DNA from: an uncultured delta proteobacterium
Lineage (GTDB): Bacteria > Desulfobacterota > RBG-13-43-22
Reading direction: 5' to 3'
DNA: 64,000 nucleotides
NCBI GenBank assembly: GCA_963790475.1
Contig: CAWBOS010000010.1
Span: 512,001 to 576,000, forward strand
Both the position numbers and the translations under genes were made by a program. Positions 20,799 to 62,702 of this stretch are shown in pieces. Every line of letters begins with the position of its first letter. Within the stretch, counting starts at the first letter, position 1. Under the pieces are notes generated by a model. That model saw only the letters and a program-made list of their open reading frames with translations. It did no database searches and was not told where the DNA came from.

Positions 20799-22064
20799 AT
20801 GAACGATGATGGGAAAATAACCATTCTCCTCGTGGAAGATGAAGCATTCATTGCACTGTCCGAGATGCTGACTCTTAGGGAATACGGTTACAAAGTTATC
20901 CCTGTTTTTACCGGCGAAAAGGCAATAGAAACCGTTGAAAAATCTCCTAAGATCGATCTTGTCTTGATGGACATCAATTTGGGAAAAGGAATGGACGGGA
21001 TTCAAGCCGCCAGGTTAATTCTTGAAAAGCGTACGCTTCCTGTAATCTTTCTATCATCGGCTACCGATCGCCAGGTGGTGGAAAAAACCAAGGAAATAAC
21101 CTCCTATGGCTATATCGTCAAGGGCTTGGAAGAGATAGTACTCATTGCATCTATAGAAATGGCATTCCGACTTTTTGAATCGCAGCTGAAGGAAAGGCAG
21201 CAAGAGAAGGCGCTGAGACAAAGTGAGGAGAAGTATAGGACTATCATCCAGGCAGCCCTGGATGGCTTCTGGCGGGTGAATAGAGAGGGACGTTTACTGG
21301 AAGTCAACGATGCCTATTGCCGGATGAGTGGCTACAGCGCCCAGGAGCTTCTGGCCATGTTTATTCCTGATTTGGAACTTAGCGATTCTACCGATGGCCT
21401 AGCCGCCCATATCCAGAAGATCATGGTGCAGGGAGAGGATCGTTTCGAGTCAAAACACATCCGCAAAGATGGAAGAATCTTTGATATCGAAGTCATCGTC
21501 CAATCCTGCCCCTCTGATGCGGGCCAGTTTGTAGTATTCCTAAGGGACATCACCGATCGTAAAAAGGCTGAGGAAGATCTCAAGACCTTGTCTCTTAAAG
21601 ATGAACTGACCGGCCTCTATAACCGCCGGGGTTTTTTTACATTGGCCGAACAAGGGTTGAAGACGGCCCAACGGATGGGAATAGAGATGTTGCTCATTTT
21701 CGGAGACTTGGATAATATGAAGAGAATTAATGATACCTTCGGCCATAAAGAAGGGGACCAAGCCTTGGTGGATGCTTCACAGATACTTAGGAAAACCTTT
21801 CGGGGGTCGGATATCATCGCCCGGATTGGGGGGGATGAATTTGTCATTCTGGCTATGAACAAACTTGAGACCTCGGCCGAGAAACTTATATCCCGCTTCG
21901 AACAGGTCTTAACTGAACATCATCTCCAAACAAAACGTTCCTATCCCCTCTCACTGAGCCTGGGTATTGCTTATTTTGATCCCCAAAATCCTTGTTCCTT
22001 AGATGTCCTGCTCGCCCAAGCAGACAAATTGATGTATGAGAACAAGCTCAAAAAGGATAGATAA
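20799..22064 (+). CDS. REC-PAS-GGDEF diguanylate cyclase
   Basis: REC (LLVEDE, LMDINL), PAS (VNDAYCRMSGYS, RKDG), DELTGLYNRRG and intact RIGGDEF. Confidence 0.93.
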   Translation: MNDDGKITILLVEDEAFIALSEMLTLREYGYKVIPVFTGEKAIETVEKSPKIDLVLMDINLGKGMDGIQAARLILEKRTLPVIFLSSATDRQVVEKTKEITSYGYIVKGLEEIVLIASIEMAFRLFESQLKERQQEKALRQSEEKYRTIIQAALDGFWRVNREGRLLEVNDAYCRMSGYSAQELLAMFIPDLELSDSTDGLAAHIQKIMVQGEDRFESKHIRKDGRIFDIEVIVQSCPSDAGQFVVFLRDITDRKKAEEDLKTLSLKDELTGLYNRRGFFTLAEQGLKTAQRMGIEMLLIFGDLDNMKRINDTFGHKEGDQALVDASQILRKTFRGSDIIARIGGDEFVILAMNKLETSAEKLISRFEQVLTEHHLQTKRSYPLSLSLGIAYFDPQNPCSLDVLLAQADKLMYENKLKKDR

Positions 22065-22226
22065 GATAGAATTATTAGCCCTGATGCCAATACACACTTC
22101 AAACAGCAATTGTTAATTTGCAGGGCCGTTTTCTAAAACATCTGTAGAGTTGCCAAGCGGGAAAGGTCTGTCTCTTCTTTTCCCCTTTTTTCTGTGACCG
22201 AGAAATATTTAAAAGTGAGGTACCTT

Positions 22227-22766
22227 ATGAAAAAATGGATTATCGATCCTGAACACACCGTCGCCCATTTTACGGCCCGTCACATGATGATTACGGATGT
22301 CCACGGTCAATTCAATAAAATATCCGGTGTTATTTATTTTGATCCTGCAGAAATGGAGAACACTTCCTTGGAGATAGAAATAGATGCCACAAGTATATGG
22401 ACAGGCATTGAACGGAGAGACAACCATCTCCGAAGTGCCGATTTTTTCGACGTTGAAAAATATCCCAAGATTCTTTTCAAAAGTGCAAAGGCCGAAATCG
22501 CCGGGAGCAACTTATTGAAAATTTACGGGGAGTTGACGATTCACGGTATAACTCACACCGTTATTCTTAATACCGAGTACTTCGGTCCAATCCAGTATGA
22601 GGACGAGACGGGTTCATACACTACCATCGGTTTTTCGGCGACCACCTATCTGCGTCGAGAAGATTTCGGCATGAATTGGAACAACAATTTTGGGCCAGGT
22701 AATTTTATGGTCGGAAAGCATATCGATATTACCCTGGATGGGGAAGCGGATCTCTCTCTTGAATGA
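22227..22766 (+). CDS. YceI family protein
   Basis: WIIDPEHT, RDNHLRSADFFDVEKYP, GELTIHG, REDFGM. Confidence 0.92.
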   Translation: MKKWIIDPEHTVAHFTARHMMITDVHGQFNKISGVIYFDPAEMENTSLEIEIDATSIWTGIERRDNHLRSADFFDVEKYPKILFKSAKAEIAGSNLLKIYGELTIHGITHTVILNTEYFGPIQYEDETGSYTTIGFSATTYLRREDFGMNWNNNFGPGNFMVGKHIDITLDGEADLSLE

Positions 22767-22951
22767 ACAGCACCATCCCTGCGCCTTATGAGTTCGATTT
22801 GGGTTTGGAATTTGAATTTCAGACTTGATAAGGATTTCAAAATAATCTTGAAAATATTTCTACTGGGAATTCGAAGGGAATTTTAATAAAGAAGAAGGGC
22901 GGCTAGGCCGATTAGATTATCCTGCGGCCTGTCCGCCCCTCGTTTGCGTTG

Positions 22952-23089
22952 CTATCCAAGCAACGTTCAAGATTTTCAACTCTTGCACTTGTGGCATACC
23001 TTCCCAGGATTTTGTTTCCAGAGCTTCTTCACTTTATCCCAGTAGGCCGCCTCCTTGGCCAGGACCTTGGGGTTCAGCTTATTGGTCAT
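22952..23089 (-). CDS. Unannotated small Cys-rich peptide, candidate selenoprotein. 37 aa to the first TGA (22976); 45 aa if both TGAs are read as Sec.
   Basis: RBS AAGGGAGGTGG then ATG. Translation MTNKLNPKVLAKEAAYWDKVKKLWKQNPGKVCHKCKS(TGA)KS(TGA)TLLG(TAG). Hairpin CGTTGCT-TGGAT-AGCAACG follows. Confidence 0.6.
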
Positions 23090-23148
23090 CCCGATCCACC
23101 TCCCTTCTCGCAAAGGTTTGACCTATGATACCAGTTAGTGGAGGGATG

Positions 23149-23440
23149 TCAAAGCCATTTTTTCGAGCGGATCACCTTTCCTGGAGAACTCCCAAAGAGG
23201 CAGGCATCAACGCAGGCCGCCTTTTTTCCCCTATTTGATGGATGTGCCTTTTCGCAAAATTTTTTCAGACATTCCCGTTTATGACCGGTAATCGCAGCCA
23301 TCGTCTTCGAGTCGCAAGACCTGAATACCGGCCTGGCGAGGATTAAGCGGCCCCGGATCGTAAGAGGAGCAGGCGACCTGACAACGTTGACAACCGCGGC
23401 AGTTTTCGGAATTGATCCTGATGGAATCTGCATAACTCAT
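23149..23440 (-). pseudogene. Frameshifted 4Fe-4S dicluster ferredoxin-like protein
   Basis: RBS GAGGAG, ATG 23440: MSYADSIRINSENCRGCQRCQVACS..LNPRQAGIQV.., stop at 23279. The second half (ECLKKFC...ACVDACLFG) continues in another frame. Confidence 0.75.
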
Positions 23441-23478
23441 GTCGGTCTCCTCACTTGTAATTCATAGTGTTTTTCAAC

Positions 23479-23533
23479 AAAAAAAATCCCCAAAACTGAC
23501 CTTGTCGGCTTGGAGATTTACCTTCTCTCCAAG
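23479..23533 (-). terminator. Riboswitch expression platform: intrinsic terminator with a competing helix
   Basis: Minus strand AAATCTCCAAG..TTGGGGATTT plus U-run; upstream CTTGGAGA can alternatively pair with TCTCCAAG. Confidence 0.65.
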
Positions 23534-23542
23534 TCTTTAGTC

Positions 23543-23726
23543 GGGCATTGGCAGGTCTTCTGACTGATGGATCATCCTAATCCCCGCGCTTTCCCAGATC
23601 GTTTCGTTTCATTAAGCCTATGACCCGGTGACAATCTTTGCGGGTTTCGTCCCCATACACAGCGGCGGGTCCGTGCCGTAATCTCACCGGCTTCCCTTTT
23701 GGGCTCGAAAGAGCCACCAAACGTCC
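23543..23726 (-). ncRNA. Cobalamin riboswitch
   Basis: Minus strand AAAAGGGAAGCCGGTG..CGGCACGGACCCGCCGCTGT..GTCACCG..TGGGAAAG..AGTCAGAAGACCTGCC. TTGACA upstream at 23776-23771. Confidence 0.9.
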
Positions 23727-24366
23727 ATGAATTAGTTCGTAATCCACTTTTACCGCACCCGGTCTATTCCTGTCAATAAAAAGGGGACACCCAATCAGTT
23801 CTTGGTGGAATTGCCGGGAGAAATAAGGCTTTTAAGCCACGCGGGGAAGAGAGAATTTATGGAATCTTCACGACAGGTATAAGAGGAAACCTGTAGACCG
23901 GCAAGGGTAGAACAGATAGAATTTTCCCTGAAGTCAGTTAAAGAAGAAAGGATGATATCCTTTCTGAAATGTTGCTAAGTGAATTGGAATAGGCCGCTTT
24001 GTTATAAAGTTATAACAGCATGTTTGGATTGGAAAATGGAATATTTTCCTCGCCAAAAGCCGATTATTTTAGTTTCCTTTTTATCAATCTGCTTTTTAGT
24101 AGGCATCGTTTTTTCAAGCTACTATATAATGAGCGAGCTTGATATGTTTTCTCCTAATCTCTCCTTTGAGGACCAAGACCCGGGTACTCTGACTACCGTT
24201 GAGAAAGTCAATCTATCCTTTTCTTATTTAGAGCCCCCCTTATTGCCTATCTGTAATTCATTCCTTCAGGCCACTCTTGTTTTACAAATCTCCCTCGACA
24301 GCTCAATAAACTGCCCTAATCCCTTTGCGGAGGCTTTTTTTTGACCACTCAAGAAAGGAAAGAACC

Positions 24367-54561: not shown

Positions 54562-54591
54562 TTGACTCTAATAAGCTGTTTAAGATACTAT
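54562..54591 (+). promoter_or_regulatory. Putative sigma70 promoter of the cob leader
   Basis: TTGACT-18 nt-TACTAT immediately before the riboswitch. Confidence 0.5.
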
Positions 54592-54598
54592 TTTAAAT

Positions 54599-54759
54599 AT
54601 AAAGGTACCAAGACCGGTTTAAAAGGGAAGACGGTTTAAGGCCGTCACGGTCCCGCCGCTGTGTCCGGGGACGAAATCCACAAGAGCCACTGTCCGTTTA
54701 AGGCGGACGGGAAGGCGTGGAAAATAGGATGATCCGGAAGTCAGAAGACCTGCCTTTAT
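54599..54759 (+). ncRNA. Cobalamin riboswitch
   Basis: AAAAGGGAAGACGGT..CCGTCACGGTCCCGCCGCTGT..GCCACTG..GGGAAGGC..AGTCAGAAGACCTGCC; hairpin GAATCCCC/GGGGATTC follows. Confidence 0.93.
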
Positions 54760-54864
54760 GGATGAATCCCCAAAAGCGTTGGACACGGGGGGATTCGACT
54801 TAATGGATCAAGAAAGCTGGGTGCCATCCTTAAGTTCACTAATTGGACTTAAGGATTTTTTATT

Positions 54865-62443: not shown

Positions 62444-62520
62444 GGGGTTATGATAAGATTTGTGCATGTTTTGCTGAAGATAACGGAAGGGGGTGGTGAG
62501 ATAGGAGAGAAGGTGAGTCT

Positions 62521-62688
62521 ATAAAGGATATGCTGTTAATCGGGGAATAAAGAACTGGAAAGGGGTGAGAATCCCCTGCTGTCCCGCAGCCGTGAAGGGA
62601 ACGAAAGCCCAATTAAATCCACTGTCATGAGTAAAGCCATGATGGGAAGGAGGGTGATTAGGGTGCCCGAAGCCGGAAGACCTTTTAT
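62521..62688 (+). ncRNA. Cobalamin riboswitch
   Basis: GGAAAGGGGTGAGAATCCCCTGCTGTCCCGCAGCCGTGA..TCCACTG..TGGGAAGG..AGCCGGAAGACC; lies upstream of cbiM. Confidence 0.85.
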
Positions 62689-62702
62689 TCCCGAAACCTC
62701 GA

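Follow-up and report, generated by a model that had tools for sequence, protein, structure and literature searches.

A 40-codon micro-gene with an in-frame UGA in an uncultured delta proteobacterium, the probable orphan paralogue of a small-selenoprotein family with a predicted radical SAM modification

Does a reading frame of only 40 codons, interrupted by in-frame TGA, encode a selenocysteine-containing peptide, and if so, what becomes of the peptide? The question is raised by the minus strand of a 64,000-nucleotide stretch of DNA from an uncultured delta proteobacterium (GTDB lineage Bacteria; Desulfobacterota; RBG-13-43-22; assembly GCA_963790475.1, contig CAWBOS010000010.1, positions 512,001 to 576,000), here called the window. 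A preliminary description, made from the letters alone, had pointed out a micro-gene starting at ATG 23089, with two cysteine codons, two in-frame TGA codons and a short hairpin, and had read it as a candidate micro-selenoprotein transcribed under an upstream cobalamin riboswitch. Judged from sequence comparison, the micro-gene is a conserved gene, far beyond chance. It is probably an orphan paralogue of a precursor-peptide gene, belonging to a family of small selenoproteins with a predicted radical SAM modification.

The coding sequence occupies positions 22970-23089 of the minus strand, with the ATG at 23089-23087. On rereading the sequence, the ribosome-binding site, the ATG, the TGC and TGA codons, the 7-bp hairpin and its 17-nucleotide (nt) spacing were all found where the preliminary description had placed them. 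Residues 1-31 form a basic leader. The core reads C32-H-K-C35-K-S-U38-K-S, with Cys32 encoded by TGC at 22996-94 (identified from the sequence and the family alignment), Cys35 by TGC at 22987-85, and selenocysteine (Sec, U) 38 by the in-frame TGA at 22978-76. Codon 41, a TGA at 22967-22969, is the true stop codon of the window copy; past it, the frame reaches a TAG four codons further on. The ribosome-binding site AAGGGAGGTGG is read at 23096-23106, and its GGAGGTG core ahead of the start is kept across the aligned family copies, including members from across the phylum. A sigma-70-type promoter (TTGACA, 16 nt, TG-TATCAT; 23125-23152) matches 11 of 12 consensus positions, and its -35 and -10 boxes are shared by the five closest copies in an alignment of 18. 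An open reading frame (ORF) of 45 amino acids from TTG 23113 was rejected as gene model; the start conserved in the family alignment is ATG 23089.

Directly 3' of the stop lies the hairpin, at 22947-22965, with a perfect 7-bp stem (arms 22965-22959 and 22953-22947) and the loop TGGAT. It is followed at 22885-22939 by a long hairpin and a T-rich run resembling an intrinsic terminator, with a counterpart in most of the 18 aligned copies. A simple terminator scan gave nothing at the window gene, because the loop of the long hairpin exceeds 8 nt; the terminator was assigned from the predicted fold and its conservation. Promoter, gene, hairpin, terminator and flank together form a duplicated unit of 393 nt (22792-23183, minus strand), which starts just upstream of the micro-gene promoter and is 86% identical to G000:C10:222756-223148 in the same genome. 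The window copy is an orphan paralogue with its own promoter and its own terminator.

In a DNA search of 41 related genomes, recurrence was limited to the part of this region between about 23183 and 22880, which is present in one or two copies in many genomes of the genus and family. Two more copies are present in the window's own genome (C10:222756-223058 and C15:128510-128777). Gene length is exactly 40 codons in the 18 aligned copies and in the extracted ORFs. The three cores of this genome differ at the cysteine and TGA positions: the window copy has C-HK-C-KS-UGA-KS-UGA, the C10 copy C-HK-UGA-KS-UGA-KS-UGA, and the C15 copy C-HK-UGA-ES-C-KS-UGA, with TGC at position 38. The family motif is C-x-x-U-x-x-U-K-x-stop, of which the window copy is a CxxCxxU variant. 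A family profile was built from nine members with stops read through and TGA not forced. With it the gene was detected in 16 genomes of the class out of 21, which represent a single order and family. A sample of 401 genomes from the phylum added 12 matches at E up to 1e-4 from other families, and every one of them shares the core.

Of the 31 genes recovered by searches in which TGA was not imposed, 29 carry it at positions 35 and 38 alike. TGC takes its place at one position in each of the remaining two, which are the window copy and the C15 copy of the same genome. Neither position is ever TAA or TAG, and TGC is the only replacement. In 63 distinct 40-codon sequences, codon 41 is TAA in 29, TGA in 24 and TAG in 10, and the Cys32 codon varies synonymously (TGC 51, TGT 12). 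Over codons 1-31 of the same sequences, differences at codon positions 1, 2 and 3 number 21575, 21263 and 33141, and single-base codon differences are synonymous in 11514 cases and non-synonymous in 9311. The codons between the UGAs stay in frame and vary synonymously. E13, C32 and K39 are invariant and A14, W17 and K21 nearly so, while K36, S/G37, K39 and S40 are conserved past the first UGA. The TGA kept at 35 and 38, the synonymous excess and the variable stop at codon 41 together argue that the frame codes through both UGAs and ends at codon 41.

This comparison also settles the reading of the core. The preliminary description had proposed a Cys/Sec motif with two Cys and possibly two Sec. 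Sec38 stands, and the homologues do align TGC with TGA (at 35 in the window copy and at 38 in that of C15), together with covariation in the hairpin. What had been missed is that the second Cys codon, TGC 22987-85, is TGA in nearly all relatives, and therefore marks the first Sec position of the family. The description's own caution that the second TGA of the window may simply be the stop was well placed: since codon 41 alternates between TAA, TAG and TGA, TGA 22969-67 is the true stop, and a third Sec at codon 41 was rejected.

A scan of named genomes used a pattern that required TGA at both positions, and is thus unfit for counting Cys variants. At least 120 stretches matched, of which 80 were listed, so that the counts are those of a sample. 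With leader motif and hairpin as criteria, 48 of the 80 listed records hold true members; the other 32 or so, without leader motif and hairpin, were dropped as chance matches. By title, 31 of the 48 are of Nitrospirota type (Nitrospirae, Nitrospiraceae, Thermodesulfovibrionales/-ia, Dissulfurispiraceae), ten are labelled 'delta proteobacterium', Thermodesulfobacteriota, Desulfobaccales or Syntrophobacterales, three are Syntrophorhabdus or Syntrophorhabdaceae, and four have titles that are vague or of another kind. Every one of the 48 is a metagenome-assembled genome. By these record titles the family spans two or more phyla.

Bacterial selenocysteine insertion sequence (SECIS) elements have a G in the apical loop, about 16-37 nt from the UGA. 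The window hairpin folds at -9.4 kcal/mol, and for the 86 nt from 22985 to 22900 the folding z-score relative to 200 shuffled sequences is -3.0. The distance from the first window TGA to the hairpin loop is 17 nt, with GG at +22/+23 from UGA 22978. Because the MAFFT alignment misplaces the 3' arm where loop lengths vary, base pairs were counted by a register-anchored script and on a covariance-model alignment. The register-anchored count found the 6-bp core paired in 70-71 of 71 distinct sequences, and the loop-closing pair to be T-A in 36, C-G in 22 and A-T in 11. Further stem exchanges are G-C to A-T and T-A to C-G, and in three members the whole stem is replaced by an unlike, GC-rich one. 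Loop sequences comprise GGTC (20), GGTCA (14), GTC after an extra G-C pair (11), TGGAT (9, in the window's genus) and GTT (9), besides some rarer ones. In 66 of 70 sequences, counting from the second UGA, the first loop G is at +19 to +22.

On the covariance-model alignment, which is fitted to the structure and includes about 11 antisense matches of the palindromic hairpin and one stray (L098:1064-1094), 94.7% of cells are paired versus 83.4 +/- 1.1% in shuffled alignments, and the covariation score is 0.302 versus 0.091; none of 500 shuffles reaches either value. Pairing falls to 20-52% when the register is slid. The model matches the window at 22945-22967; its alignment missed the members with the most divergent stems. 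A comparison by RNAfold with the SECIS of the genome's own selD brought out no clear common hairpin, and a regular expression describing the family apex picked up no more than two of this genome's three peptide copies. With its GG loop, its compensatory changes and its spacing, the hairpin behaves like a bacterial SECIS and is a candidate for one.

The preliminary description had tied its reading to the Sec machinery of the host, and this is present throughout: selA (543 bits; an intact copy on C20), selB (390.6 bits), tRNA-Sec, and selD, which itself has an in-frame TGA. The selA gene occurs in 19 of the 21 genomes of the class. Conserved UGA codons, a covarying hairpin and the machinery in the genome thus bear out, at the level of sequence, the proposal of a Sec-coding micro-gene with a SECIS-like hairpin, and the window micro-gene is very probably a true Sec-coding gene. 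A second selA, at G000:C13:443527-444625, lies in four frame pieces with TAA and TGA stops; it may be a pseudogene or foreign sequence, the assembly being rated 9.68% contaminated.

What, then, is the peptide for? Clustering of neighbouring ORFs showed that 28 of the 31 loci have a gene of about 346 codons on the same strand, 95-350 nt downstream of the peptide gene. It is missing from three loci: those of the window and C10 copies, and one where the peptide gene stands at the end of a contig. The encoded enzyme has the Pfam Radical_SAM and SPASM domains, an invariant CX3CX2C motif (C19, C23, C26) and seven invariant SPASM cysteines (C253, C271, C309, C312, C318, C321, C344). Such a radical SAM/SPASM gene also lies downstream in 38 of the 48 listed named loci (49-70% identity); of the ten without it, four have less than 850 nt after the peptide. 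The window genome, with its three peptide genes, has a single such enzyme, at G000:C15:127383-128441, adjoining the third peptide copy. Among solved structures, those closest to the enzyme belong to the peptide maturases SkfB, PqqE, CteB (5wgg) and anSME. With family members directly upstream of a radical SAM/SPASM gene, the suggestion in the preliminary description that fits best is its guess of a radical SAM precursor of the class of peptides made by the ribosome and modified after translation (RiPPs). The peptide is probably, though with less assurance than attaches to its coding status, a substrate of the SPASM enzyme.

The complex of the two was modelled from the enzyme (with an alignment of 20), three 4Fe-4S clusters, S-adenosylmethionine (SAM) and the 37-residue peptide that the standard code gives for the window, the peptide alignment consisting of 34 truncated database forms. 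The complex scored 0.88 (runs 0.88, 0.89 and 0.87), and the best of three controls scored 0.02. This mark is reached by 58 of 80 solved complexes and by two of 110 mismatched pairs, a calibration that is rough here, since custom alignments were supplied and the ligands rode along in the model. Between runs, at least 61% of contacts are shared, and the predicted local distance difference test (pLDDT) value of the partner is at least 70. In the model, peptide residues E13, A14, W17 and K21 contact enzyme residues W55, Y59, R287 and W290; of these, W55, R287 and W290 are invariant and Y59 nearly so. The modelled core residues 30-36 touch enzyme residues 228-231 and 250-254, beside SPASM Cys253. 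The model supports a docking of the peptide on the radical SAM/SPASM enzyme.

Other genes recur less regularly. Directly upstream of the cassette peptide copy of the window genome lies a B12-binding radical SAM gene (G000:C15:128945-130411, minus strand). It is found in the window's genus and one sister genus, and among the 48 listed named loci only in two, both with a peptide of the window-genus type. It may provide a lineage-specific extra modification. A YceI-like gene is convergent with the window micro-gene (22194-22766, plus strand). Genes of this kind stand directly after the radical SAM gene in eight of the 48 listed loci and, at L115, directly after an orphan copy of the peptide; six further loci have one close by (L115, L063, L067, L087, L096, L101, L103, L125, L136, L017-L020, L045 and L048 in all). 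A functional tie between YceI and the peptide cassette is possible. At a single locus inspected by eye, the orphan copy L117 adjoins ORFs resembling selD, yedF/TusA and a class-V aminotransferase of the cysteine desulfurase or selenocysteine lyase type, a selenium-metabolism neighbourhood.

From these parts a pathway can be proposed. The gene would be transcribed from its own promoter, with the transcript ending at its own terminator, and would be translated from ATG 23089. SelB and Sec-tRNA, acting on the hairpin, would recode the UGA or UGAs, which in the window would make UGA 22978-76 Sec; the second UGA of the family has an fdhF-like spacing from the hairpin. The leader helix would then dock on the dedicated radical SAM/SPASM enzyme, which in the window genome would be that encoded at G000:C15:127383-128441. 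By analogy with thioether-forming enzymes, a Sec or Cys side chain may bind the open iron of the first auxiliary cluster, and the 5'-deoxyadenosyl radical would drive the formation of Se-C or S-C bonds. Seleno- or thioether cross-links would be the most likely product; a side-chain oxidation or heterocycle of the SbtM type would be the alternative. The B12-dependent radical SAM enzyme of the window's genus may contribute methylation. The product more likely acts inside the cell, in a cofactor-like or metal/redox capacity, than as a secreted antibiotic, because export and protease genes are not conserved nearby, the whole peptide is conserved and YceI genes recur.

The most far-reaching form of this proposal is offered tentatively, as something short of an even chance. 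The family could be the first natural two-Sec peptide family to be selenoether-bridged or otherwise Se-modified by a dedicated SPASM enzyme, and to serve as an intracellular cofactor or metal/redox peptide in anaerobic lineages of Nitrospirota, Desulfobacterota and Syntrophorhabdus type. A pair of UGAs nine bases apart would both be recoded by one hairpin lying wholly beyond the stop codon, and the three paralogues of the window genome (C-C-U, C-U-U and C-U-C) would form a natural chalcogen-swap series.

Several observations weigh against the proposed pathway. GG lies at +28 to +31 from the first family UGA, which is 9 nt farther from the hairpin, and at L108:2587-2641 the 5' arm is present with unrelated sequence in place of loop and 3' arm, which points to decay of this copy or to a join made in assembly. 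No maturase gene adjoins the window copy, and its position 35 is Cys. The partner reaches no NCBIfam cut-off (AhbD 175.7 of 500 bits, GeoRSP 151.5 of 400, SbtM 140.7 of 350, MftC 126.5 of 265), and its best scores, far under the cut-offs, are those of tetrapyrrole enzymes, AhbD and then NirJ2 (168.7 bits). Pfam detects no recognisable RiPP recognition element (RRE) or PqqD-like domain in it, and no protease or exporter gene is conserved around the family loci, so that a classical secreted RiPP is not indicated. These last absences would also suit a stand-alone small selenoprotein, a metal/redox Cys/Sec cluster on a basic helix that partners the enzyme, for instance by donating electrons, selenium or clusters, and is itself not modified. 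Such a role would agree with the conservation of all 40 residues, leader included, across phyla, and with the existence of orphan copies, one of them (L117) beside the selD-, yedF- and aminotransferase-like ORFs noted above. It is nevertheless unlikely, since a short ORF right upstream of a SPASM gene is the usual layout of precursor and maturase, the nearest solved relatives of the enzyme modify peptides, and the model sets the core beside an auxiliary-cluster cysteine, where thioether-synthase substrates bind according to the available part of PMC10177961. Most loci run from the ORF through the hairpin and a terminator-like hairpin to the radical SAM gene, an arrangement that would also fit a cis-acting leader ORF whose selenium-dependent UGA decoding controls the terminator and so tunes the radical SAM gene. 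A pure sensor ORF would not be expected to keep E13, C32 and K39 invariant or to have a synonymous excess, its peptide would not be predicted to dock on the enzyme, and orphans with terminators and no downstream gene exist, namely the window copy, the C10 copy and at least five listed named records with at least 2 kb of room; this reading is very improbable. Slighter still is the chance that translation simply stops at the first UGA, where the public protein calls end, giving 37 amino acids in the window and 34 in relatives, with the hairpin an attenuator or other RNA element. Against it stand the restriction of positions 35 and 38 to TGA and TGC and the use of all three stops at codon 41, as well as the in-frame, synonymously varying codons in between and a hairpin with SECIS loop and spacing.

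That the micro-selenoprotein is expressed under the cobalamin riboswitch, as the preliminary description had supposed, is decidedly doubtful. The riboswitch is real (RF00174, 23533-23736, minus strand; 80.9 bits with Rfam), lies on the same strand 444 nt upstream of the micro-gene, and the simple scan gave no terminator between the two; the cassette copy of the window's genus, moreover, has a B12-binding radical SAM gene upstream. However, the micro-gene has its own promoter with 11 of 12 matches, and homology with all other copies begins there. The space between riboswitch and promoter is taken by a 53-codon ORF (23279-23440, minus strand) with one 4Fe-4S motif, which must be a stump, since in its relatives the frame stays open for 130-230 codons; another Cys-rich piece is encoded in a second frame, 23149-23433. 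This looks like a decayed riboswitch-linked ferredoxin gene, possibly cut by the arrival of the 393-nt peptide unit. No cobalamin riboswitch was found in the 20 other family loci searched (123.5 kb). Control by the riboswitch is therefore not supported; it appears to be an accidental neighbour and not a feature of the family, although read-through transcripts are possible. A search of sequencing runs for positions 22600-23800 turned up no RNA data set. The window contains two more cobalamin riboswitches (54586-54771, plus strand, 123.7 bits; 62508-62700, plus strand, 71.4 bits). A response-regulator/PAS/GGDEF protein encoded at 20799-22064 (plus strand) is ordinary and has no relation to the micro-gene.

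The family has left almost no trace in annotation. For 53 members, NCBIfam release 20, with the SCIFF, UXX-star and KCU-star models included, gave no consistent match at E up to 1. A Pfam match to DUF7573 (E 0.035, 14.5 bits versus a cut-off of 30.2) was dismissed as noise, and Pfam gave nothing for two other family members. A profile search of 5.8 billion clustered proteins yielded 56 clusters, nearly all of 34 residues and unnamed or 'hypothetical protein'; all 14 of the clusters that were inspected end one residue before the first UGA. An exhaustive HMMER search of 1.84 billion representatives gave 115 clusters, counted at 50% identity, nearly all of which align, by their own C-terminal end, with profile positions 1-34 and no others. 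The only full-length match, P0063 (49 amino acids), has W at all three TGAs and runs through the hairpin; from its sequence it is evidently a translation-table artefact of a TGA=Trp gene call. Gene calls stop at the first UGA, and the family is thus invisible to annotation. Among the 115 clusters there is no all-Cys homologue. Most selenoprotein families do have such relatives; their absence here suggests a chemistry for which selenium is indispensable. The family is apparently Sec-obligate, large and unannotated, with a dedicated radical SAM partner.

Published inventories give the same picture. In Table 1 of PMC13188914 (May 2026), to which the comparison is confined, none of the 119 prokaryotic selenoprotein families is a 40-residue CxxUxxU peptide, and none is tied to the present radical SAM/SPASM enzyme. 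The families of Haft & Tolstoy 2025 (mSystems) are covered through that table and NCBIfam release 20. A literature search returned no CxxUxxU peptide and no cassette of peptide and SPASM enzyme of the present type. Selenoproteome inventories miss very short genes. With 40 codons and one 20-nt hairpin, the family offers a compact test bed for a SECIS outside the ORF serving two neighbouring UGAs, for SPASM chemistry on native selenolates and for the role of the product.

Comparison with known systems places the parts of the family one by one. The apex of the E. coli fdhF SECIS is a SelB-binding stem-loop. The commonest family hairpin (6-bp stem, GGUC loop, GG about 20-22 nt from the UGA) presumably resembles this apex closely. 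It differs from the fdhF SECIS in having no bulged U, in its position entirely beyond the coding region, and in that it would serve two UGAs. Like the 'star' selenoproteins (NF041114 and NF041211, UXX-star; NF033934, KCU-star/DUF466), the family has Sec two residues from the stop, so that the SECIS must lie after the stop codon. Two Sec three residues apart are also listed for predicted UxxU families (PMC13188914, Table 1). The 'star' and UxxU families are larger proteins or have different folds, and none of the 53 members matches their models.

SCIFF systems consist of a peptide of about 40-45 residues with a conserved leader and a Cys-rich C-terminus, followed by a SPASM enzyme; they are housekeeping-like and have no protease or exporter. 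The present family shares with SCIFF/Tte1186/CteB the two-gene cassette of peptide and then SPASM enzyme, and CteB is among the nearest solved relatives of the partner. Unlike SCIFF, two of the three chalcogen residues are natively Sec in the family, no NCBIfam peptide model is matched, and the partner is without an N-terminal extension that could hold an RRE, its radical SAM motif beginning at residue 19. Tte1186 accepts Sec in place of Cys, and thioether-forming SPASM enzymes take Sec at the cross-linking site and form Se-C bonds, the Sec-substituted substrates of PapB and Tte1186 binding the open iron of the first auxiliary cluster (PMC10177961, in the part available).

While SCIFF is closest in layout, the closest parallel in kind is SbtA/SbtM (TIGR04081/TIGR04082, a thio(seleno)oxazole RiPP), with which the family shares a Sec peptide, a SECIS, a radical SAM/SPASM enzyme and anaerobic hosts of deltaproteobacterial type. 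In the available parts of PMC9204691 and PMC11002830, SbtA is a UGA-encoded Sec peptide with a SECIS just after it and a radical SAM/SPASM enzyme beside it; SbtM modifies this natural Sec peptide (PMC9204691), and SbtA is now credited with two Sec residues (PMC13188914, Table 1). None of the 53 family members, which have 40 residues, matches TIGR04081, and the G-G/S-U-G context of SbtA is replaced by C-x-x-U-x-x-U-K-x-stop. The partner scores 140 bits against the SbtM cut-off of 350 and aligns with the C-terminal part of the 516-position model only, the N-terminal 200 or so residues of SbtM being absent from it. As far as the available text of PMC9204691 and PMC11002830 goes, SbtA/SbtM is the only earlier natural system of a Sec-containing peptide modified by a radical SAM enzyme. 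The present family, new on this comparison, would be the second natural Sec-peptide family tied to a radical SAM/SPASM enzyme, unrelated to SbtA/SbtM and far more widespread.

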